A DNA stretch of 64,000 nucleotides, from the IMG/VR virus record IMGVR_UViG_2517572207_000003, one strand, 5' to 3'. Shown in pieces: positions 6,666-64,000 of this stretch. The position numbers and the translations under genes were made by a program. The stretch is from a virus (lineage: Duplodnaviria; Caudoviricetes). The notes below the pieces were generated by a model. The model searched no databases and was not told the origin of the DNA. It saw only the letters and a list, made by a program, of their open reading frames with translations. Every line of letters starts with the position of its first letter. Position 1 is the stretch's first letter.

Positions 6666-6782
6666 AATTCACCGTAACACGGAGAACAAAGCCCTCTTAT
6701 TTTTGTTTCATCTGCTCTTGGAGACAATAATTTCTATCTGTCGTTCATTTTTTGGTATAATTTACTTAAAGGGGGTGATCAA

Positions 6783-7004
6783 ATGGGAATTATGCTTATT
6801 CTTATTGCTATTGTTTTTTTCGCGCTTGGTATTTTAAGTAAACGGAAACCCACTTGGGGATGGCGTGCAAACGAAGCCTGGAAAATCAAAGGTGACTCAG
6901 AACCAAGCGACGCTTACATTGATGACATGAAATTTAGGGGCTCTGTATCTATTCTCTTTGGGTTCTTCTTCTTAGCATGTGGACTTTTGGTTATCTTCCT
7001 GTAA
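6783..7004 (+). CDS. Small membrane protein, DUF6199-like (duplicate of 51049-51273)
   Basis: Two TM helices flanking WGWRANEAWKIKGDSEPSDAY. Confidence 0.75.
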   Translation: MGIMLILIAIVFFALGILSKRKPTWGWRANEAWKIKGDSEPSDAYIDDMKFRGSVSILFGFFFLACGLLVIFL

Positions 7005-7290
7005 GCGCACTTCCTTAAACTTCAAAGCTCGACCAGCGAATGTAGTAGTAGTTCCATAACTAGCTTTATAGATTTCATACTTTTCTTTTTTTGTTTCTAA
7101 ACACTTCTTCGCGCCCTGCTGGCGTTTGTATTCTTTCCAGTCTACTTCATGAAACCAAAAGTATTTTCCGTAGCTATCCCTATAGGTCTCTATACAGAAT
7201 TGAAGAAGTTCCTTCATTGATTTGTATGTATCTGCTCATGGCATGGATCGAACATGCCAAGGCATTTATCTTTACACCGTGTCCGCTTCT
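7003..7290 (-). pseudogene. Remnant of the HNH gene (homolog of 51290-51970)
   Basis: ELLQFCIETYRDSYGKYFWFHEVDWKEY versus ELLQFWISAFRDKYGDHFWFDEQDWEEY. Confidence 0.75.
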
Positions 7291-7422
7291 AACTATTTAA
7301 AACCTAATTCAATAATTTTTTGTGGGGAAATTGTGGGGAGTACTGCGTAGTCCAAGAAAATGAAGCATTATCCTCAAACAAAAAAATCCCTCAACGCTTA
7401 GAGCGCCAAGGGATTCCACATT

Positions 7423-7473
7423 TTAGTAAAGCGTCAGATATTGATCACGTTCCCATTGATGTACTTGGGTTCT
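7423..7473 (-). repeat. Prophage att junction: duplicated 3' end of glnA
   Basis: Minus strand translates to RTQVHQWERDQYLTLY*, matching the GS-I C-terminus (B. subtilis RTQVHPWEREQYMSQY); no upstream glnA frame; hairpin at 7385-7415. Confidence 0.85.
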
Positions 7474-7667: not shown

Positions 7668-7823
7668 CTACTTTACGAAAGTGAATTCATGAATCCATGA
7701 AGGAGCTTCTACTATTACAACGACCGGCAGAGTAGTCCCAAATACCTGAAGCATAGATAAGGTATAAATTTCAGCATTCTCTTTTTTAATGTCCCATTTA
7801 ATCTTTAATCTGTGTATTTGCAT
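7668..7823 (-). CDS. 51-aa peptide with an SWIH motif
   Basis: RBS AAAGGA then MQIHRLKIKWDIKKENAEIYTLSMLQVFGTTLPVVVIVEAPSWIHEFTFVK; divergent from the XRE gene. Confidence 0.5.
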   Translation of the reverse strand: MQIHRLKIKWDIKKENAEIYTLSMLQVFGTTLPVVVIVEAPSWIHEFTFVK

Positions 7824-7908
7824 TGATGCACGTCCTTTGTCGTATTTACTGGAGTGCCTCTCAGTGATATAATTTGCAACGAATAGATGTCTACTGGAGG
7901 ATCTCTGA

Positions 7909-8121
7909 TTGAAAATCTCCCGTGGGAGATGCCGACTTAAGGAGCTACTCGAAGAACGTCGTATAAAACAAATCGATCTTGCTAGACGCACCGGCTACAG
8001 CAGACATTTGATTTCTAATTGGGCCAACAATCAGGATAAAATGTCTGCTGATGTTATGATTAACATAGCTTATGCCCTCGATTGTAAAATGGAAGACTTA
8101 TACGAACTGATCTTTGAGTGA
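7909..8121 (+). CDS. XRE/Cro-C1 HTH regulator
   Basis: RLKELLEERRIKQIDLARRTGYSRHLISNWAN...IAYALDCKMEDLYE; RBS GGAGG. Confidence 0.9.
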   Translation: MKISRGRCRLKELLEERRIKQIDLARRTGYSRHLISNWANNQDKMSADVMINIAYALDCKMEDLYELIFE

Positions 8122-8348: not shown

Positions 8349-8744
8349 CTATTTTGTAGCAACTCCAGTGAAGATTATTTTCGAATTAATAAAACCCATT
8401 TCTTCAACAACCTCATCAAATCGATGGTAAGCAATTGGACACCTTTTCGATGTTTTTGTTACTTCATCTTCAAAGTAAGCATCTTTAAAGATACCATTAA
8501 CAATCTTTACTTTTTCTACATTAAGAGTGTTGCTTCTATCCACATTTAAAAAACGATATCCGTTACTATTCAAAAAATTCTCCCAATGTCTCAAGGTTCC
8601 TACCATATAGTATGTTTTATCAAATGTATGAACCAGTATCTGGTCTCGCTTTCTCCCCTTAGAGATGAAAAGGACTTTGTCTACTAAAACATTTTCTCCT
8701 CTTTCTATACCTCCAGGATCTGCCGATACGGTTAAACTTAGCAT
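8349..8744 (-). CDS. Stand-alone LytTR DNA-binding protein (no receiver domain)
   Basis: VLFIS..ILVHT..YYMVGTLRHWE..FLNVDRSNTLNVEKV matches the LytTR F-x-R-x-H-R-S-x-x-V-N region; only 131 aa. Confidence 0.85.
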   Translation of the reverse strand: MLSLTVSADPGGIERGENVLVDKVLFISKGRKRDQILVHTFDKTYYMVGTLRHWENFLNSNGYRFLNVDRSNTLNVEKVKIVNGIFKDAYFEDEVTKTSKRCPIAYHRFDEVVEEMGFINSKIIFTGVATK

Positions 8745-8758
8745 TTAACATTCCCCGC

Positions 8759-8905
8759 TTACTTTAACAATTCTTTCGGTGGTTCGGGACTGTGAATCCA
8801 TGACAGACTTGCCGTGCTCACTGATGCAACTGCAAGTATTGTCAACATTGCAGCAATATTGTAATACATACTAGCCTTCACTTTACTCGGTTTGGTTTTC
8901 TTCAT
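8759..8905 (-). CDS. agrD: AgrD-like cyclic lactone autoinducer propeptide (48 aa, not in ORF track)
   Basis: RBS AAGGAGGTG; MKKTKPSKVKASMYYNIAAMLTILAVASVSTASLSWIHSPEPPKELLK; H-x-P-E-x-P-K-x-L tail as in clostridial AgrD; overlaps the agrB 3' end. Confidence 0.9.
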   Translation of the reverse strand: MKKTKPSKVKASMYYNIAAMLTILAVASVSTASLSWIHSPEPPKELLK

Positions 8906-9437
8906 TTTTCACACCTCCTTCTATTAGTGTTAAACTCTGAACAAAAAAACTGGCAGCTACCACTGGAAAAGCCAACCACAGATTTAGAGCAACAATTGCA
9001 ACTCCCATAAACTTTAGCAACGGATAGTGCTTCTTTGATATACGCGTCTTCCCCTCCACCCTCGATGGCGCGTAAATCAAGATAAGCACAATACTTATTA
9101 TCGACGTAATAACGATCCAATTGTAATTAAAACTTGCGAAAGATAAAGCAGTAAGTAGAACTGTAGATACAACAATACACACTATATTGCTCTTTAAATG
9201 TATTCCTCCTACAATTTGGCGCAACATTGAAAAAGATATCATAGCTAGCAAAGCTTCCTGCATTCTGTCCGTAAAAAATGAGATACCTATAGTCAGTAAA
9301 ATAATTGAGACTGTATTGATCGCAACGGATATCCCGTGTTTTAGAACATCTATAGATGAAGGATGATCAGGGACAACTGTTTTGATGTGAGTCGCAATAT
9401 TAAGAGCGATGGTGTCAAGGCTTTTTATAGTAATCAC
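8883..9437 (-). CDS. agrB: AgrB-family peptide-processing membrane protein
   Basis: LRQIVGGIHLKSNIVC retains the catalytic His and Cys; YAPS motif; multi-TM. Confidence 0.92.
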   Translation of the reverse strand: MITIKSLDTIALNIATHIKTVVPDHPSSIDVLKHGISVAINTVSIILLTIGISFFTDRMQEALLAMISFSMLRQIVGGIHLKSNIVCIVVSTVLLTALSFASFNYNWIVITSIISIVLILIYAPSRVEGKTRISKKHYPLLKFMGVAIVALNLWLAFPVVAASFFVQSLTLIEGGVKNEENQTE

Positions 9438-10047
9438 GCTCCGTTTTTAATGCATAATATAAAAACATGGCAGATGCTAAGGCAATAAATAGAATACTCA
9501 AGAAGAAATTATTGACGTAAAACATAAATGCACAAGCTGCCAATACTCCTATTATTAAGATAATAACGAGTACATACTCCCACTTAAAACGTAGATTTTC
9601 ATAATCTGCCGTAAAGCCTATTTTAAATTTATACAGGAACCACGAAATAGCTAACACCCATGCACTAGTTACCGCTTGCGCTAACGATCCTTCTGCTGAG
9701 GTCTGCATTTCTGTTGTCAAGGTACCAAAAAGCATTAATATAACCGCCGCTTGGAATAATGTGTACAAAAAAGTGCCTGTAATGGATATGATGGCTGCCC
9801 AAATAATCGGCATCCTAACAACAGTGGTTATTAATAACGTGAACAATATAATGTTTATGGTTGGAGCAAAGAAAGATAAAGATGTCTCTTCTCTCAAGAT
9901 AAAGCTCTGCAAATTCATTATCAATCCAATAAACAATGCAGGCCATATATAGTCTAAGGCTCTAACTCTAAAAATAGTTAACATTAAAACAAACGCCGCA
10001 AATGTTTCTACAGTCGAGAAAAGCAAGAACCGTACAGGCTCCCACAT
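9415..10047 (-). CDS. Polytopic membrane protein, putative AgrC-like sensor without a kinase domain
   Basis: About 7 hydrophobic segments in 210 aa; no HisKA/HATPase; first gene of the operon, overlapping agrB. Confidence 0.6.
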   Translation of the reverse strand: MWEPVRFLLFSTVETFAAFVLMLTIFRVRALDYIWPALFIGLIMNLQSFILREETSLSFFAPTINIILFTLLITTVVRMPIIWAAIISITGTFLYTLFQAAVILMLFGTLTTEMQTSAEGSLAQAVTSAWVLAISWFLYKFKIGFTADYENLRFKWEYVLVIILIIGVLAACAFMFYVNNFFLSILFIALASAMFLYYALKTERDYYKKP

Positions 10048-10072
10048 AACACATAACCCCTTCTCATAATTG

Positions 10073-10105
10073 GTAACAAATATGCTTTAATTCTATATTT
10101 GTTAC
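10073..10105. promoter_or_regulatory. 11-bp inverted repeat upstream of the agr-like operon
   Basis: GTAACAAATAT-N11-ATATTTGTTAC. Confidence 0.5.
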
Positions 10106-10171
10106 TTGTTAGAGGCAATCCAATTACCATGTTAAATGGAAGTATTTATGTATTATGTGAGGTAATTATTT

Positions 10172-10504
10172 TCAGCCTGCCGATATAATATCCTCAAGCC
10201 TAATCCAACTAAAGTCATCTTCCCCACGAAACAGTTTTACTTCGCGTCTAGCGGTGTTAATTGACGTTACTACACCAGTCATGTCCGTATCGTCAAACGG
10301 GCTAAATACGGTCACGCTGACAGGCTGGCGTGAGTTGTAAGAGTCTATTAAAGCCTGCTCAATCAATTGTACTTCCTGGTCATCCAATTCTGGTTTACCG
10401 CGCCGTTGACGGTCTTTCATAAGTTTTAAGTATCCTTCTTTATGTTCGGGCAAAATGATGCGTGAACTCTCCCATAAACCATTACCCTCAAGTCTCTTTC
10501 CCAT
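10172..10504 (-). CDS. YolD-like protein
   Basis: WESSRIILPEHK...PELDDQE...WIRLEDII signature. Confidence 0.88.
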   Translation of the reverse strand: MGKRLEGNGLWESSRIILPEHKEGYLKLMKDRQRRGKPELDDQEVQLIEQALIDSYNSRQPVSVTVFSPFDDTDMTGVVTSINTARREVKLFRGEDDFSWIRLEDIISAG

Positions 10505-11148: not shown

Positions 11149-11565
11149 TTACTTTGCAGTAGGGTAATCTTTAACACCTAGTCTTTCCTTAAGCGCGTGC
11201 TGTAACACCTGTGAAAAGTTAATTTTCTCACGAGTAGCTTCCCGCTCAAGCCAGCGTGGAAGTGTGACATTTTTGGTCACTGCTTTGTTCATCATTTCGT
11301 CCCTGATCGTCCCCATCCTTATCTCGATCAAAGTGATGAAAGAATCGGGTGGCAATTGAATGCTCGCTGGATCAGAAGCTGGCGGAATCACTTCGTTGTC
11401 CTCTTCAAGGCCAAACAATTGCAGCTCTAAGCACTCCTTCGCCATTCGCAAAGCCTCAGACATATCATCGCCTTCTGTTATCGCTCCAGGAAGATCCGGA
11501 AAAGTGACTGTGTAACCTTTCACTTCACCCTTTTCAAATATTGCAGGGTAAATGTATTTATCCAT
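11149..11565 (-). CDS. hicB: HicB antitoxin
   Basis: YTVTFPDLPGAITEGDDMSEALRMAKECL; C-terminal KNVTLPRWL...INFSQVLQ RHH. Confidence 0.93.
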   Translation of the reverse strand: MDKYIYPAIFEKGEVKGYTVTFPDLPGAITEGDDMSEALRMAKECLELQLFGLEEDNEVIPPASDPASIQLPPDSFITLIEIRMGTIRDEMMNKAVTKNVTLPRWLEREATREKINFSQVLQHALKERLGVKDYPTAK

Positions 11566-11591
11566 ATATATGAACCTCCTTTTGAGGGGGG

Positions 11592-11780
11592 CTATTTAAG
11601 CCCCGCCTGTTTGAGTATTGTGTCTGCTGTTTTGGGGTCAAGGTCTTTTCTTGGATGCGGTACTGTGACGAGACCCGACTTAGTAGGATGTTTGAATTGA
11701 TGATGACTCCCTCTAACCCTAGCTAAGTACCACCCATCTGCTTCGATTATCTTTATCATGCTACGTGATGAGTAGTTCAA
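11592..11780 (-). CDS. hicA: HicA mRNA interferase toxin
   Basis: DGWYLARVRGSHHQFKHP...VTVPHPRKDL...ILKQAGL. Confidence 0.93.
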   Translation of the reverse strand: MNYSSRSMIKIIEADGWYLARVRGSHHQFKHPTKSGLVTVPHPRKDLDPKTADTILKQAGLK

Positions 11781-11968: not shown

Positions 11969-12838
11969 GTGGTCTATTTGTTTATTTCTCCAATGTTACT
12001 TGAAACAGCGGCTGCCCCCTTTTCGGATTCGCGCTATATCTTCGAACCGAAAATAGACGGCCACCGCTTAATATATTCGCAACAGAACGGCATTGTACGC
12101 TTATTCACGCGCCATAACAATGACTGCACACGCCAATACCCGGAGATAGCTAGCGTTACATTCCCGCATGACATTGTGTTGGACGGTGAGATTGCGTGCG
12201 TTGATCCGACAACGGGTGTATCGGATTTTGAATCCGTTATGTCCCGCTTCCAGGCGAGGAAAACGGACAAGATTACTAAGCTCGTAGCTGAATTACCGGC
12301 TACTTTCGTTGTCTTCGATGTCTTGAGCTTTAAAGGCGAGGACTTGCGGAGCCTTCCGCTTATGGAACGCAAGTCCATACTCGCTAGTCTAACGCTTCCT
12401 AGCCCTAGTTTCGGGGTTGTTCCGTATATTGAAGGCGCCGGGGAGGCGTTGTTCGAGCAGATAGAAGCGCGCGGCATGGAAGGCCTGGTCGCCAAGCGTA
12501 AGGATAGTATGTATATCAGCCGCCGATCAGCGTCCTGGCAGAAGGTCATTAACTGGTCCTATGCCGATGTGTACATTACGGGTTATCGTAAAGAGGAATT
12601 CGGATGGCTTGTATCAGTGCCTAATGAGCGCGGTAACCTTCGTCCCGCCGGCATTATTGAGCACGGAGCTAGCCCAATGCACAAGAAGGCGTTCTATGGC
12701 GTCGTGGCACCGTTAAAGACCGATGAGGATCGCGAATTTGTTTACGTGGAGCCGCGCATAAGAGCCCGTGTTAAAATGCGAAACTGGACTAAGGCGGGTA
12801 ACTTGCGGATACCAGTATTTACGGAATTTATAGTTTAA
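11969..12838 (+). CDS. ATP-dependent DNA ligase (LigD-type ligase domain)
   Basis: EPKIDGHR (motif I), LDGEI, FDVL, EGLVAKRKDSMY, GNLRIPVF. Confidence 0.92.
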   Translation: MVYLFISPMLLETAAAPFSDSRYIFEPKIDGHRLIYSQQNGIVRLFTRHNNDCTRQYPEIASVTFPHDIVLDGEIACVDPTTGVSDFESVMSRFQARKTDKITKLVAELPATFVVFDVLSFKGEDLRSLPLMERKSILASLTLPSPSFGVVPYIEGAGEALFEQIEARGMEGLVAKRKDSMYISRRSASWQKVINWSYADVYITGYRKEEFGWLVSVPNERGNLRPAGIIEHGASPMHKKAFYGVVAPLKTDEDREFVYVEPRIRARVKMRNWTKAGNLRIPVFTEFIV

Positions 12839-17997: not shown

Positions 17998-18558
17998 TTA
18001 CTCCGTAGTTACAGGCATTTGAACAGCTTCTAACGGCGCTGAAATAGGTCCAGGTTCAGATTGCACCTGAGCAGGAACAGTATTGGCTACCTCTGCTGTA
18101 GCTTGAGCCAAAAAATCATTAAGCTTTGCAGCCAGACCAGATACAGCTTCCTTAGCTGCGGCCTGTGCTGCCTTCTCGTTCGGCTGTGCTTCAGTAGCCA
18201 GTATCGCTTTTGTTCTGGCCTTATACTCCAGATATGCTTTCTCAATCGCTGCTTGAAGCTCCGTAGGCGATACCACAATGCCCTGTTCTGTAAGTCTCAA
18301 GGATGCATATTGCAAAGCCTCTTGCATCTTGCGAATCCCGCCAGCATCTTTAAACGTAGTCTGAGCAAGTGCAAAAGCCTCCCCTGCTACTTTATGGATT
18401 ACCTCTCGCTGTGCCGCTGTTGTACGTGCGTCTAACCACACGTTAACCTTAGTCTTGAGTTTGTTCAGACCTCCTAAAACAAACGCTGTAAGCACACCCG
18501 CAGTGGCTGTGACAATGGTATTTACGTAAGGTTGTACAGTTTCGATAATTGTTTGCAT
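17998..18558 (-). CDS. LL-H family holin
   Basis: N-terminal TM; GIRKMQEALQY...LQAAIEKAY pattern; next to the endolysin. Confidence 0.75.
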   Translation of the reverse strand: MQTIIETVQPYVNTIVTATAGVLTAFVLGGLNKLKTKVNVWLDARTTAAQREVIHKVAGEAFALAQTTFKDAGGIRKMQEALQYASLRLTEQGIVVSPTELQAAIEKAYLEYKARTKAILATEAQPNEKAAQAAAKEAVSGLAAKLNDFLAQATAEVANTVPAQVQSEPGPISAPLEAVQMPVTTE

Positions 18559-18560
18559 GA

Positions 18561-19334
18561 TTATTTATCCCCTTTCGTTTCAAAAATCCCTGCTCGATCA
18601 AGCATCGTGACCATGCGGTAAAAGTCATAAGATCCATCATTAGCTGTATCTAGAACACCTACGGCCTTGGCGTTGATGCAGGCTTGTTCAGCCCACGTGG
18701 GTACTTTGGGCTGTTTGGCCGCTGTCTCCAGTGTCTTGATGCGGTCAGCCTGCGCCTGCACTGTTTTTTGTAGTTCCTTCAACGTTGCTTTTTCTTCTAG
18801 TGTCATGGGTTCATCATCTCCTGTTTTGTTAATCCTGGATAAAACTGAATCAATCTGTGCCTTCGTAGGCCGCTTACCTGCTCGATACTGTGCTGTGCTC
18901 AGGCCAAATACTATTTGTAGATGCGGCAAGTCGGTGAACGTTTTCCAATCGCCTCCCCACTCAAAGCCCAGCTCCTTAGCAATAGCCACAACCTGCATCC
19001 AGTCCGCTTTATGGTCTGCATTACCATCTCTTTGAGTATCCCAGCTTACAGACCGTCCGTCAGGCAGCAGTAAGGAAAAATCAATAGCCACACCAAAATT
19101 GTGATAGCTGGTCCCGCCTTTGGCGTTTGTTACTTTTGGTCCCGGCTTGGTCCGTCCCTGTGCGTAAAGCTCATTTTGCTCCGCTATGGTCCGTAGCCCC
19201 TGTGTGATTACGATAGGTATACCTAAAGCAAAGGAACGCTCTATAAGGCACTCCGCGGCTGTGCGGACGACAGGTAAAAGTCCCTGTAAACGCGTTGCAG
19301 ATTTACTCTTTACCAACTCCAGTGTTATTGTCAC
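18561..19334 (-). CDS. Endolysin, M15 L-Ala-D-Glu peptidase
   Basis: QGLRTIAEQNELYAQGRT, SYHNFGVAID, WGGDW...DLPHLQ. Confidence 0.93.
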   Translation of the reverse strand: MTITLELVKSKSATRLQGLLPVVRTAAECLIERSFALGIPIVITQGLRTIAEQNELYAQGRTKPGPKVTNAKGGTSYHNFGVAIDFSLLLPDGRSVSWDTQRDGNADHKADWMQVVAIAKELGFEWGGDWKTFTDLPHLQIVFGLSTAQYRAGKRPTKAQIDSVLSRINKTGDDEPMTLEEKATLKELQKTVQAQADRIKTLETAAKQPKVPTWAEQACINAKAVGVLDTANDGSYDFYRMVTMLDRAGIFETKGDK

Positions 19335-19752
19335 TACCGTTTCCCCCTTTTCCTTTCAATACCTCAACCGCTTGTCGGATCACTGGTGGAATTGGCGCTC
19401 CAAGCCTGCCCCCGTTTTCCAGAATCGAAAGCAGCTCATTTGCCATATAAAAATAGGCGACCGCATCCCGGAATAGGTGCGAATCGCCTAAAACTCCATC
19501 AATCAGATGGGATACTGCTACCATTGCAAAAATAAATACCTTTCGAGCGATACCGATAAGACCAATCTTACTTTTCAAACCGGGTCCGGTTCCCTTCTTA
19601 CCTTCAGCACCAGCAGCAAATAATCCGGTCACATAATCAATAATGACCAGAGCAAGTAACACCCCCAATACTCCCGACCACCCACCGTAAAAATACGTCA
19701 CAGCGCTACTTCCTAAAGCAGTGCTGAACTTAAAAACCTCCCACTTATCCAC
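19303..19752 (-). CDS. Holin (toxin secretion/phage lysis family)
   Basis: IIDYVTG, LKSKIGLIGIARK, NELLSILEN...PIPP. Confidence 0.9.
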   Translation of the reverse strand: MDKWEVFKFSTALGSSAVTYFYGGWSGVLGVLLALVIIDYVTGLFAAGAEGKKGTGPGLKSKIGLIGIARKVFIFAMVAVSHLIDGVLGDSHLFRDAVAYFYMANELLSILENGGRLGAPIPPVIRQAVEVLKGKGGNGSDNNTGVGKE

Positions 19753-19774
19753 CTTGCTTCCCCCGTCTCTCCGT

Positions 19775-19996
19775 TCAGGAAACTTTTCCTGAGCTATCAT
19801 CGTCTACTTTCTGTTCCTTTTCTTCCTGGGCCTGTATCTCTGCTAATGCATTTCCTACTGCCATATCCAAACCTTTAAGTATTTCCTTCCGGCGCGCTGG
19901 TTGCGAAGCAATAACAGCAGAAATGACCTCGGTCAATTCTTCAATCGGCCTCGTTAAATCCAATTGTATATCCAATGCGGATTTTATCTTTGCCAT
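19775..19996 (-). CDS. Hypothetical phage protein
   Basis: 73-aa ORF with RBS GAGGGGG. Confidence 0.65.
   Translation of the reverse strand: MAKIKSALDIQLDLTRPIEELTEVISAVIASQPARRKEILKGLDMAVGNALAEIQAQEEKEQKVDDDSSGKVS
19777..19790. repeat. Dispersed palindrome AGGAAA-NN-TTTCCT (also 23811, 31863, 40141, 43790, 52480; one mismatch at 61019)
   Basis: Six perfect copies read directly, mostly at gene junctions. Confidence 0.8.
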
Positions 19997-50923: not shown

Positions 50924-51048
50924 GCTTGAACCCCCCTTATGGAGGGCTGTTCCCTCCTTCTTATCCACTGGGCCTATCCTCTCTACCCTTGGGGGCTATA
51001 CTTTTCATCGTTATTTTTTGGTATAATTTAATTAAAGGAGTTGATAAA

Positions 51049-51273
51049 ATGCTTGGTTTCGTACTTATACTTTTTGCAATTATTTTTTTCGCGCTTGGTA
51101 TTTTAAGTAAACGAAATCCCACTTGGGGATGGCGTGCAAACGAAGCCTGGAAGATCAAAGGTGACTCAGAACCAAGTGATGCATACATTAATGACATGAA
51201 ATTTAGAGGATCTGTATCTATACTCTTTGGGTCCTTCTTTTTAGTATGTGGACTTTTAGTTATATTCCTGTAA
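51049..51273 (+). CDS. Small membrane protein, DUF6199-like
   Basis: Near-identical to 6783-7004; RBS AAGGAG; TATAAT upstream. Confidence 0.75.
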   Translation: MLGFVLILFAIIFFALGILSKRNPTWGWRANEAWKIKGDSEPSDAYINDMKFRGSVSILFGSFFLVCGLLVIFL

Positions 51274-51289
51274 GTTCCACTTCCTATTC

Positions 51290-62812: not shown

Positions 62813-64000
62813 ATGGCAAACTTTAAAAGATTAAAGAGTGGTTGGCGGTATCGGTTAAAGTACACCGATCCGTTTACACAGCAACAAAAGGAGAAGTCAG
62901 AACGGGGATTCCGTACAAAACCGGAAGCAGAGTTAGCTGCAGCAGAATTTTTAAAGAGAATAAAACAAGGTTACGAACAGATTGACATGCCTCTCGTCGA
63001 TTATATAGAAAGTTGGATCATCAACTATAAAAAAGGAGATGTTAGAAAAAACACACTTAAACAACATATGAACAATCTAAAAACACACATTAAGCCTTAT
63101 TTTAAACAATTAATGATAAAAGATTTAAAACCAGATATGTACCAAAAATTTTTAGATGCTTGTTTAGAAAAAGGCTTAAGCCGAAGAACAGTCGAAATAA
63201 TTAACTCAACAGTTTACAGTGCTTTAGAACTCGCAGTAATTCAAGGAAAGTTAGAACGTAATCCTTGCATAGGATCAATTATTAAGGGAGAGAGGAAACA
63301 AAAAACTATTGATTTCATTGATTCTGAGGATATTCCTCGTTTTCTTTATACAGCAAGAGGATATGGTTATATATACTGGATATTTTTCAAAGTGCTGTTG
63401 GAGACTGGCATGCGTAAAGGTGAAGCCGCTGCTTTAAAGTGGTCTGATATTAATTTTAAGGAGAAAAAAATTCACATTAATGAAACTTTGGATTTCCAAC
63501 CTGATAACGAGGACGAGCTATTCGGGGAAACAAAAACATTCAAATCAAAACGAACAATCAGTGTAAGTACATCTCTAATCAACGATCTAAAGTATCATGC
63601 TAGTTGGCAGAACCAGAATAAAATTAATCTCGGAGAAACAATGTACCGACATGATTTAAATCTCGTTCTATGTAGAAATGACGGACGTCCTATGCCGAAG
63701 TCAACACTATTTAACGCATTTAAGCGTATCTTGAAGCGCGCTAGTCTCGATGGAGTTTTACGTATCCATTCTCTTCGTCACACTTACGCAGTGCTCATGC
63801 TTGAAGCTGGAGCCGATATAAAGTTTGTCCAGGAGCAGCTTGGTCATGGTAGTGTGCAGATTACATCTGATGTATACGCACACATTTCTAAAAAGTTAGA
63901 GAAACGTAACATAGACAGATATGAGGAATACACAAGCAAAATTCTCGACTCAAACAATTTTAAGTCGGGGGACATTTGGGGGACACCCCAGAAGAATTAA
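62813..64000 (+). CDS. int: Tyrosine integrase
   Basis: Arm-binding N-terminus; TGMRKGE, HSLRHT, LGH, DVYAH catalytic motifs. Confidence 0.96.
   Translation: MANFKRLKSGWRYRLKYTDPFTQQQKEKSERGFRTKPEAELAAAEFLKRIKQGYEQIDMPLVDYIESWIINYKKGDVRKNTLKQHMNNLKTHIKPYFKQLMIKDLKPDMYQKFLDACLEKGLSRRTVEIINSTVYSALELAVIQGKLERNPCIGSIIKGERKQKTIDFIDSEDIPRFLYTARGYGYIYWIFFKVLLETGMRKGEAAALKWSDINFKEKKIHINETLDFQPDNEDELFGETKTFKSKRTISVSTSLINDLKYHASWQNQNKINLGETMYRHDLNLVLCRNDGRPMPKSTLFNAFKRILKRASLDGVLRIHSLRHTYAVLMLEAGADIKFVQEQLGHGSVQITSDVYAHISKKLEKRNIDRYEEYTSKILDSNNFKSGDIWGTPQKN

Follow-up and report, generated by a model that had tools for sequence, protein, structure and literature searches.

To our knowledge, all characterized agr systems relay their peptide signal by phosphotransfer. 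In a stretch of 64,000 nucleotides from a virus of the Caudoviricetes (IMG/VR record IMGVR_UViG_2517572207_000003), which is called the window throughout, four genes at one end of a Paenibacillus-type prophage encode a seven-helix membrane protein, AgrB, AgrD and a LytTR-type DNA-binding protein. This cassette combines the signal-making half of agr with a putative sensor that has no kinase and a DNA-binding protein that has no receiver domain. If it is working, the signal must take another route.

The closest described loci are found in phages. For Davies, Emery and Abouo a putative agr cassette was described, with membrane proteins that are maybe AgrC homologues without ATPase domain (Hargreaves et al., 2014; PMC3901668); the LytTR gene is not mentioned in that passage. 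The membrane protein/AgrB/AgrD part is thus already known from these phages, and the cassette is not unprecedented. In the accessible parts of the phages' genome papers AgrB appears in tables only, and a passage of a 2025 review states that phage agr sets lack a regulator (PMC11945551). The agr3 locus of the Clostridioides difficile phage phiCDHM1 comprises agrB, agrD and a sensor gene, located after the lysis genes and near int, according to PMC3901668.

Two further systems are related in part. In the LytTR regulatory systems (LRS) HdrRM and BrsRM of Streptococcus mutans, a receiver-less LytTR regulator is co-transcribed with an inhibitory membrane protein and no kinase is involved, as outlined in the LRS survey PMC6193735. 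For Paenibacillus polymyxa, the signal Pp-AIP (ICFGLF) is given in PMC12180512, whose introduction defines autoinducing peptides (AIPs) as cyclic thiodepsipeptides, and a canonical agrABCD locus is described for the paenibacillin cluster in PMC13700820. Besides the passage in PMC3901668, the literature search yielded no account of a seven-helix protein, AgrBD and LytTR as a signaling system; the tables of PMC12180512 (AgrB/AgrD mining) and PMC6193735 (more than 4600 LRS operons) may include such loci.

Gene content of the agr-like cassette

The four genes are arranged head to tail on the minus strand between positions 8349 and 10047, in the order membrane protein, AgrB, AgrD, LytTR (Table 1). 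The membrane protein and AgrB genes overlap by 23 nt, as do those of AgrB and AgrD (23 nt), and AgrD is separated from LytTR by 14 nt. Four tightly coupled genes had been proposed here in a preliminary description made from the sequence alone, and the coordinates, the overlaps and the family matches given below confirm them. With a promoter-like and a terminator-like site of their own, the four genes form one unit and are likely a single operon.

AgrB was assigned to PF04647 by Pfam (E-value 5.9e-19). Its His80 and Cys87, which we take to be the catalytic pair by analogy with S. aureus AgrB, are present without exception in 75 of 75 aligned relatives, so that the pair is intact as described before. 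The LytTR protein matches only PF04397 in Pfam (E-value 1.6e-5, residues 18-90) and has no receiver domain, in agreement with the earlier description. Its structural model (pLDDT 92.5) has its best superposition with AgrA of S. aureus, whose LytTR domain was solved bound to DNA (4xqn_A; E-value 2.8e-6, TM score 0.84 normalized to the target, rmsd 2.6 over 109 columns), followed by ComE, and AgrA was also the top hit of the LytTR family profile among solved structures (E-value 7.9e-4). For the 210-aa membrane protein, no match to Pfam, to NCBIfam or to a kinase, protease or transporter family was found. An AlphaFold2 model based on 25 relatives contains seven long helices (mean pLDDT 82.1, pTM 0.81), which bears out the roughly seven transmembrane segments and the missing kinase domain that had been read from the sequence.

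For comparison, 80 loci with relatives of the membrane protein were fetched, 20 with flanks of 8 kb and 60 with flanks of 3 kb, and scored by profiles built for this analysis. In this sample, which was drawn from the listed matches of the family search, is biased to better scorers and includes several orthologous copies from sister species, all four genes are present in 51 of the 80 loci, while 22 loci carry the membrane protein, AgrB and AgrD without LytTR. The remaining loci have the membrane protein with AgrB and LytTR (two), with LytTR only (two), with AgrD and LytTR (one) or alone (two). AgrB consequently adjoins the membrane protein gene in 75 loci (51 + 22 + 2), and LytTR is in line with it in 56.

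Assembled contigs from RNA libraries cover the cassette in all four runs examined, which stem from four studies. One run contains a contig of 1660 nt (8358-10017) that corresponds to the operon from the terminator to the first gene, with a separate 349-nt contig on the convergent helix-turn-helix (HTH) gene; in a second run, a 1002-nt contig with more than 99% identity extends from LytTR to AgrB. These contigs give a hint of expression, from which neither strand nor ends nor level can be read and to which DNA may have contributed. Stretches that lack contigs in the runs X1 and X11 carry no weight.

In the PHROGs collection, families exist for three of the four cassette proteins (membrane protein, AgrB and LytTR). 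A reading as a defense system was dropped, as PADLOC gave no match for the membrane protein, AgrB or LytTR.

The predicted cyclic peptide

The 48-aa ORF (open reading frame) matches TIGR04223, the family of AgrD cyclic lactone autoinducer peptides, with an E-value of 8.9e-8 and 32.1 bits at a cut-off of 19, which establishes it as the AgrD proposed earlier. AgrD could be recovered in 74 of the 80 loci. A C-terminal anchor P-x-E-L-L was placed in 72 of them, the other two having no anchor by the pattern used. In all 72 anchored precursors the residue ten positions before the anchor is a serine (70) or a cysteine (2). From this position, the five ring residues follow the pattern S-x-x-(Y/F/W)-(V/I), with 51 different ring sequences in total.

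The replacement of serine by cysteine in two relatives is what is expected of a ring-closing nucleophile, and in staphylococcal AgrD the conserved proline follows the end of the ring at the same distance. A Ser-lactone ring c(SLSWI), as had been predicted before, is therefore well founded, supported by this precursor alignment. AgrB would very probably cut off the tail of AgrD and close the five-residue lactone, leaving a short N-terminal tail, as judged from family membership and the conserved residues.

A covariation of the ring with the membrane protein, which had been suggested as a check, turned out to be weak and unspecific (Spearman 0.27), no better than with AgrB (0.29). This counts against the membrane protein as the receptor and is weighed with the further evidence below.

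The seven-helix protein as a putative peptide sensor

The function of the 210-aa protein is indicated by relatives that are fused to kinases. At the loci L144-L146, in three genomes of one sister family, six ORFs of 452-469 aa carry the seven-helix module at residues 1-205 (E-values 1e-17 to 1e-25). The three ORFs of L144 that were scanned contain HATPase_c (E-value about 1e-20), and the alignment of the family profile with one fused kinase by hhalign reached a probability of 98.8% (E-value 1.3e-16, 151 columns). These kinases adjoin an AgrB of the same family (E-values 1e-41 to 1e-52), an AgrD with the same serine motif and anchor, and a regulator with REC and GerE domains; a LytTR gene is lacking there.

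The module forms the N-terminal domain of kinases beside AgrB and AgrD, a position that by precedent belongs to the peptide sensor, and sensing the peptide is therefore also the most likely function of the 210-aa protein. This lends support to the earlier proposal that the membrane protein senses the peptide. By homology it would probably be the sensor domain of AgrBD-linked kinases standing alone, which binds the peptide from outside, again with fair probability. The kinase-fused relatives of the module beside AgrB and AgrD are new in this analysis; we know of no publication on AgrBD-linked kinases with a seven-helix input domain, although none was sought by name.

The sequence variation in the family agrees with a receptor role. 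By the positive-inside rule, in our reading, the N terminus would be outside and the C terminus inside. The putative outer loops are then the most variable parts (mean entropy 2.42) and the cytoplasmic loops the least variable (1.55). The invariant polar residues Ser11, Glu14, Arg52, Gln99 and Gln124 are located in the outer membrane half of the bundle.

Several results weigh against the sensor assignment. The AgrC models of NCBIfam show no likeness to the 210-aa protein, and its profile compared with the two HPK10-type kinases of this genome gave an hhalign probability of 0.1. Foldseek of the model against the PDB returned no match at an E-value of 0.001 or below, the best Z-score of a wide VIA-align search was 7.8, in a range common for helical bundles, and a profile search of PDB sequences yielded an ORM1-like protein only (E-value 0.02). 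Furthermore, the fused kinases are paired with a NarL/GerE-type regulator and not with AgrA. In a library of 1.84 billion proteins, the best 150 of 499 family matches are all 248 aa or shorter, and a search aimed at longer forms found no fused form; kinase-fused forms are therefore rare. Fused forms came to light in the search of the order's genomes alone, where five of the 150 matches listed are located in open frames of 456-477 aa.

When these points and the weak ring covariation are set against the kinase fusions, we still lean towards an agr-type cyclic-peptide signaling cassette of a kinase-free kind. This reading comprises the predicted lactone, the putative sensor and the family placement, but not the step from the sensor to LytTR. 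Measured by the components of agr, AgrB and AgrD are present in the cassette, and AgrC as an HPK10 kinase fusion and AgrA with receiver and LytTR domain are absent.

The relation between the membrane protein and LytTR

For the last step, the sensor might contact LytTR via its conserved cytoplasmic loops and tail, and LytTR would bind or leave DNA as in the streptococcal LRS. This step is drawn from gene linkage, and a direct coupling of sensor and LytTR is possible but somewhat doubtful.

A direct link is favored by the shared operon of both genes in 56 of the 80 loci, by the presence of LytTR in every phage version and by the precedent of the LRS, in which the membrane protein keeps the receiver-less regulator inactive. 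LytTR has also diverged more in step with the membrane protein than with AgrB (partial Spearman 0.57 vs. 0.35 in 49 loci, the pairs of which are not independent). LytTR is also kept in three of the above-mentioned loci without AgrB, of which one retains AgrD.

A number of observations speak against the coupling. The genomes of five LytTR-less loci contain no LytTR of this family anywhere (5/5, with a positive control of 5/5), and no regular substitute regulator was found next to the LytTR-less loci. Together with the 22 loci, the five genomes show that LytTR is not an obligate partner. A search upstream of 80 operons for direct repeats of the LytTR type, as 9-mers at a spacing of 18-24 bp, gave no excess over the background (mean best score 6.98 of 9 vs. 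6.94 in shuffled sequences, over 56 loci), which leaves room for a diverged or distant site.

The membrane protein gene is linked most tightly to the overlapping AgrB gene, which would fit a role in peptide production as well. The seven-helix protein might accordingly help AgrB by leader removal, export or producer self-protection, with LytTR as a linked but independent one-component regulator. The overlap and the adjacency of both genes in 75 of the 80 loci agree with such a helper, as do the loci and the entire genomes without LytTR, and the invariant polar residues within the membrane could form a transport or catalytic site. This explanation is nevertheless unlikely, because histidine kinases next to AgrB and AgrD have this module as their N-terminal input domain, two loci retain the membrane protein and LytTR without AgrB or AgrD, and the membrane protein of the window has no histidine and resembles no protease or transporter family.

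A host-dependent system would also account for the loci and genomes that lack LytTR. Here, the seven-helix protein would sense the peptide and signal via a partner encoded elsewhere, either a kinase of the host that lacks its own sensor or a different regulator, with LytTR as an optional output. An AraC-type regulator occupies the LytTR slot at one locus (L046), and four pairs of the kinase/LytTR-regulator type or relatives thereof are encoded elsewhere in this genome. We regard such a system as improbable, since no alternative partner gene recurs beside the LytTR-less loci, LytTR is in line in 56 of the 80 loci, and LytTR is part of every phage version, found in three phage types that are unrelated to each other.

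The preferred kinase-free reading is open to experiment, as the kinase-fused relatives make the sensor assignment directly testable and the LytTR partner offers a simple readout. A successful test would join agr peptide signaling to the LytTR regulatory systems, and would tell if cyclic peptides are in use among the phages of soil bacilli alongside those of arbitrium.

Distribution of the module and its possible role in phages

The membrane protein family was searched for at several taxonomic levels. A word-indexed search returned 28 proteins of 193-217 aa, and all those with a source name are from Paenibacillus. By a tblastn-type search, the family was detected in 188 of 401 genomes of the bacterial family (15 of 19 genera), and a profile search detected it in 154 of 301 genomes of the order (42 of 60 genera, 16 of 20 families). 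In a phylum-wide sample, five of 401 genomes match, of which four belong to the same bacterial family and one lies outside. The layout is thus not rare: the putative sensor family occurs in about half of the sampled genomes of the order, and three types of temperate phages carry the cassette beside an integrase.

The surroundings differ between genera. Copies from the same genus are often located beside relatives of the YolD, holin, ligase or integrase genes of this prophage, and copies from other genera lie among housekeeping genes for aconitase-family, AdhE-type, citrate synthase and transport proteins. The cassette is a module common across the order and not an invention of phages, and the many copies amid housekeeping genes do not indicate a phage-specific role.

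The preliminary description had proposed a phage communication system, which as a phage-specific one did not hold in view of the frequent ordinary chromosomal surroundings. A phage copy could let lysogens signal to one another or to relatives. In a more far-reaching reading it would represent a third way of communication of temperate phages after arbitrium and eavesdropping on host autoinducers, in which the phage's own Ser-lactone peptide acts on a phosphorylation-free sensor that directly holds or releases a bare LytTR, so that lysogens gauge their own number and tune lysogeny, induction or host behavior to it. Nothing found ties the cassette to the choice between lysis and lysogeny, and we consider this scenario rather unlikely. 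If true, it would provide the LRS with their first defined ligand.

It is highly improbable that the cassette is what remains, without function, of a degenerated kinase-based agr system riding in the prophage. Kinase-bearing relatives do exist and no phenotype is known, but the reading frames are intact, the invariant residues are kept over 75-80 diverged copies, and the family is present in most families of the order. In addition, promoter and terminator signals have been kept and contigs from RNA libraries cover the cassette.

The genome of the window contains three AgrB loci, none of which adjoins a kinase. Besides the prophage cassette, one is a chromosomal trio of membrane protein, AgrB and AgrD without LytTR (L033, G000:C1:2117505-2118836), whose membrane protein is 47% identical to that of the prophage; it is followed by an RsmD-type methyltransferase gene and is kept in seven sister species (L065-L071). 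The LytTR of the prophage is the only one of its family in this genome, so that cross-talk with the trio is possible. A divergent paralogous cassette (L031, G000:C1:3036624-3039165) is located about 155 kb to the left of the window. It encodes a 237-aa seven-helix protein (hhalign probability 95%), AgrB, a 43-aa peptide and a 244-aa LytTR protein, with a convergent HTH_26 gene. The 43-aa peptide has a P-x-E-L tail and neither serine nor cysteine at the ring position, and phage Harrison encodes a peptide of this type as well; the ring chemistry of this subfamily may differ. At G000:C1:3142126-3142856, a convergent HTH_26 gene and an ORF with a LytTR domain (118-aa frame) occur without AgrB or membrane protein and may be the remnant of another cassette.

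Some further loci deviate in their gene content. L054 (G207:C3:152306-168929) contains two complete cassettes 3 kb apart, in one of which AgrB precedes the membrane protein gene; a YolD-like gene lies nearby, followed by a 429-aa ORF. In L046, a prophage-type relative, the regulator in the LytTR slot belongs to the AraC family, carries a cupin domain and follows AgrD (9315-10370, plus strand). In L059, one of the loci with membrane protein and LytTR only, a gene for a Peptidase_M50B-like membrane protease is found directly upstream on the same strand (8693-9385, minus strand), which hints at a possible regulated proteolysis. ORFs of 230-246 aa in L024 and L028 and likewise an ORF in L076 occupy the position of this protease gene.

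Prophage context and neighboring genes

The prophage has a size of about 56.7 kb and is inserted in the 3′ end of glnA. Its left attachment site (attL) is a 29-bp repeat, which was also reported as a 33-bp match with 97% identity and represents the last codons and the stop codon of a 442-aa minus-strand frame. From its sequence and a MerR-type gene upstream, this frame is read as glnA (glutamine synthetase). The frame lies beyond the right end of the window (equivalent to 64068-65396), with its replacement last codons supplied by the phage. The cassette is located 0.9 kb from attL; excision would place it at about this distance from attP and leave int on the opposite flank, so that the repeat and the integrase gene corroborate the position at the phage end and beside attP and int that had been described.

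The old glnA end with its terminator hairpin remains at 7383-7455. A stretch of about 85 bp (7371-7455) is kept in many genomes of the genus in several copies each, a sign that phages may have integrated here repeatedly or in tandem. Left of attL, the DNA at 6700-7006 has a counterpart with 87% identity within the prophage (51008-51285), which points to remains of an earlier, related phage at this position. Rfam gave no match between 5500 and 11000 and ARAGORN detected no tRNA in the window, so the attachment site is not an RNA gene.

Between the prophage ends, the small and large terminase, the portal protein, a tape measure protein of 1804 aa, tail proteins, an endolysin and holins are encoded, and a cI-like repressor is located together with the integrase at the right end. 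The cassette lies in an accessory stretch that separates the lysis genes (17998-19800) from attL. As it has transcription signals of its own, it is read as a "moron", an accessory gene unit carried at this end of a temperate phage integrated in glnA. The same stretch carries a HicB/HicA toxin-antitoxin pair and an ATP-dependent DNA ligase (11149-11780 and 11969-12838).

Table 1. Features of the cassette and the adjoining prophage end, with positions in the window
Feature	Position	Strand	Basis or remark
Seven-helix membrane protein, 210 aa	9415-10047	-	without kinase; homologous to the probable sensor domain in histidine kinases linked to AgrBD
AgrB peptidase/cyclase, 184 aa	8883-9437	-	PF04647; invariant His80, Cys87
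AgrD-type precursor, 48 aa; predicted ring Ser-Leu-Ser-Trp-Ile (lactone)	8759-8905	-	TIGR04223
Stand-alone LytTR DNA-binding protein, 131 aa, without receiver domain	8349-8744	-	PF04397 and model
Promoter-like site TTGCCT-17-TAGAAT, upstream of the operon	10118-10090	-	upstream region kept in close relatives
Terminator-like hairpin at the operon end	8366-8342	-	sequence
Small Cro/C1-type HTH gene (HTH_26), convergent with the operon	7909-8121	+	Pfam HTH_26, E-value 8.4e-15; promoter-like site 7845-7873
YolD-like gene just upstream of the cassette	10172-10504	-	Pfam YolD, E-value 3.8e-23
attL core, 29-bp exact direct repeat	7427-7455	.	second copy at window-equivalent 64072-64100, next to int
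Terminator-like hairpin of the displaced glnA 3′ end, host side of attL	7383-7417	-	16-pair stem and T run
Tyrosine integrase of the prophage	62813-64000	+	72 bp from the attR core

The convergent HTH_26 gene is a frequent fifth member of the module. A convergent homologue within 900 bp was found in 17 of the 56 LytTR-bearing loci, as compared to none of the 24 loci without LytTR. A YolD-like gene, which recurs as a neighbor of copies in prophages, lies within 3 kb of the membrane protein gene in nine of the 80 loci, eight of which bear LytTR.

A 14-nt motif shared upstream among close relatives has four copies in the window (at most two mismatches), a count that is reached in four of 100 shuffled sequences. 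Divergent from the HTH gene, a 51-aa ORF (7668-7823, minus strand) has a hydrophobic stretch at its end and four residues (SWIH) in common with AgrD. It is 90-100% identical in the loci of close relatives and 30% identical to an ORF downstream of LytTR in L063, and no family match was obtained. It is counted as unexplained and not as a second precursor.

Relation to described signaling systems

Arbitrium (AimR/AimP/AimX) is based on an intracellular TPR receptor and a linear secreted hexapeptide. No such domain is present in the cassette proteins, to which the search within the prophage was confined. PhiCDHM1 encodes a full AgrC kinase (445-453 aa) and no regulator, whereas the cassette encodes a kinase-less putative sensor and a LytTR protein. 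The AgrBD-linked kinases at L144-L146 have a homologous module in the sensor position, but differ in their kinase domain, their REC and GerE regulator and the missing LytTR.

With the LRS, the cassette shares a LytTR regulator without receiver domain. In the LRS, the regulator gene comes first and the membrane protein gene follows directly, whereas this order is reversed in the cassette with agrBD in between. The LRS membrane proteins belong to other families (e.g., DUF2154), their signals are unknown, and direct repeats are located upstream of the -35 region; the cassette encodes a peptide ligand, and no repeats were found.

In common with canonical agr (agrBDCA of S. aureus), the cassette has the His/Cys pair of AgrB, an AgrD with a predicted five-residue ring and a conserved acidic tail, a polytopic putative sensor and a LytTR output. 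Canonical agr has the AgrC kinase and the AgrA receiver; the cassette encodes no histidine kinase and no receiver domain, so there is no phosphotransfer. The ring residue would be serine (lactone) instead of the cysteine of canonical agr. The canonical agrABCD locus that is the source of Pp-AIP differs from the cassette as well.

The closest relatives among described phages were identified by a tblastn search of AgrB against 50,697 phage records, which yielded eight records that represent five phages (Brevibacillus phages Abouo, Davies and Emery; Paenibacillus larvae phages Harrison and Paisley). The same search with the membrane protein of the window gave no match among the phage records, and the Abouo/Harrison type is a distant subfamily, with an AgrB identity of 27-36% to that of the window. 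The Harrison peptide, unlike the AgrD of the window, has no serine or cysteine at the ring position. By hhalign, the membrane protein profile matches Abouo gp44 with a probability of 90% and the LytTR profile matches gp47 with 79%. The fourth protein of Abouo and Harrison (118-122 aa), annotated as "peptidase", is a LytTR protein by Pfam (E-value about 1e-6). Abouo gp40 is YolD-like, as is the product of the gene upstream of the cassette. In Abouo (gp44-47) and Harrison (genes 38-41), a membrane protein of about 222 aa, AgrB, a small peptide and a LytTR-only protein are encoded in the same order as here and next to the integrase, so that the co-occurrence of the four genes in other phages, which had been suggested as a check, was found. 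Like these, the cassette consists of four genes in one direction in a temperate phage near int.

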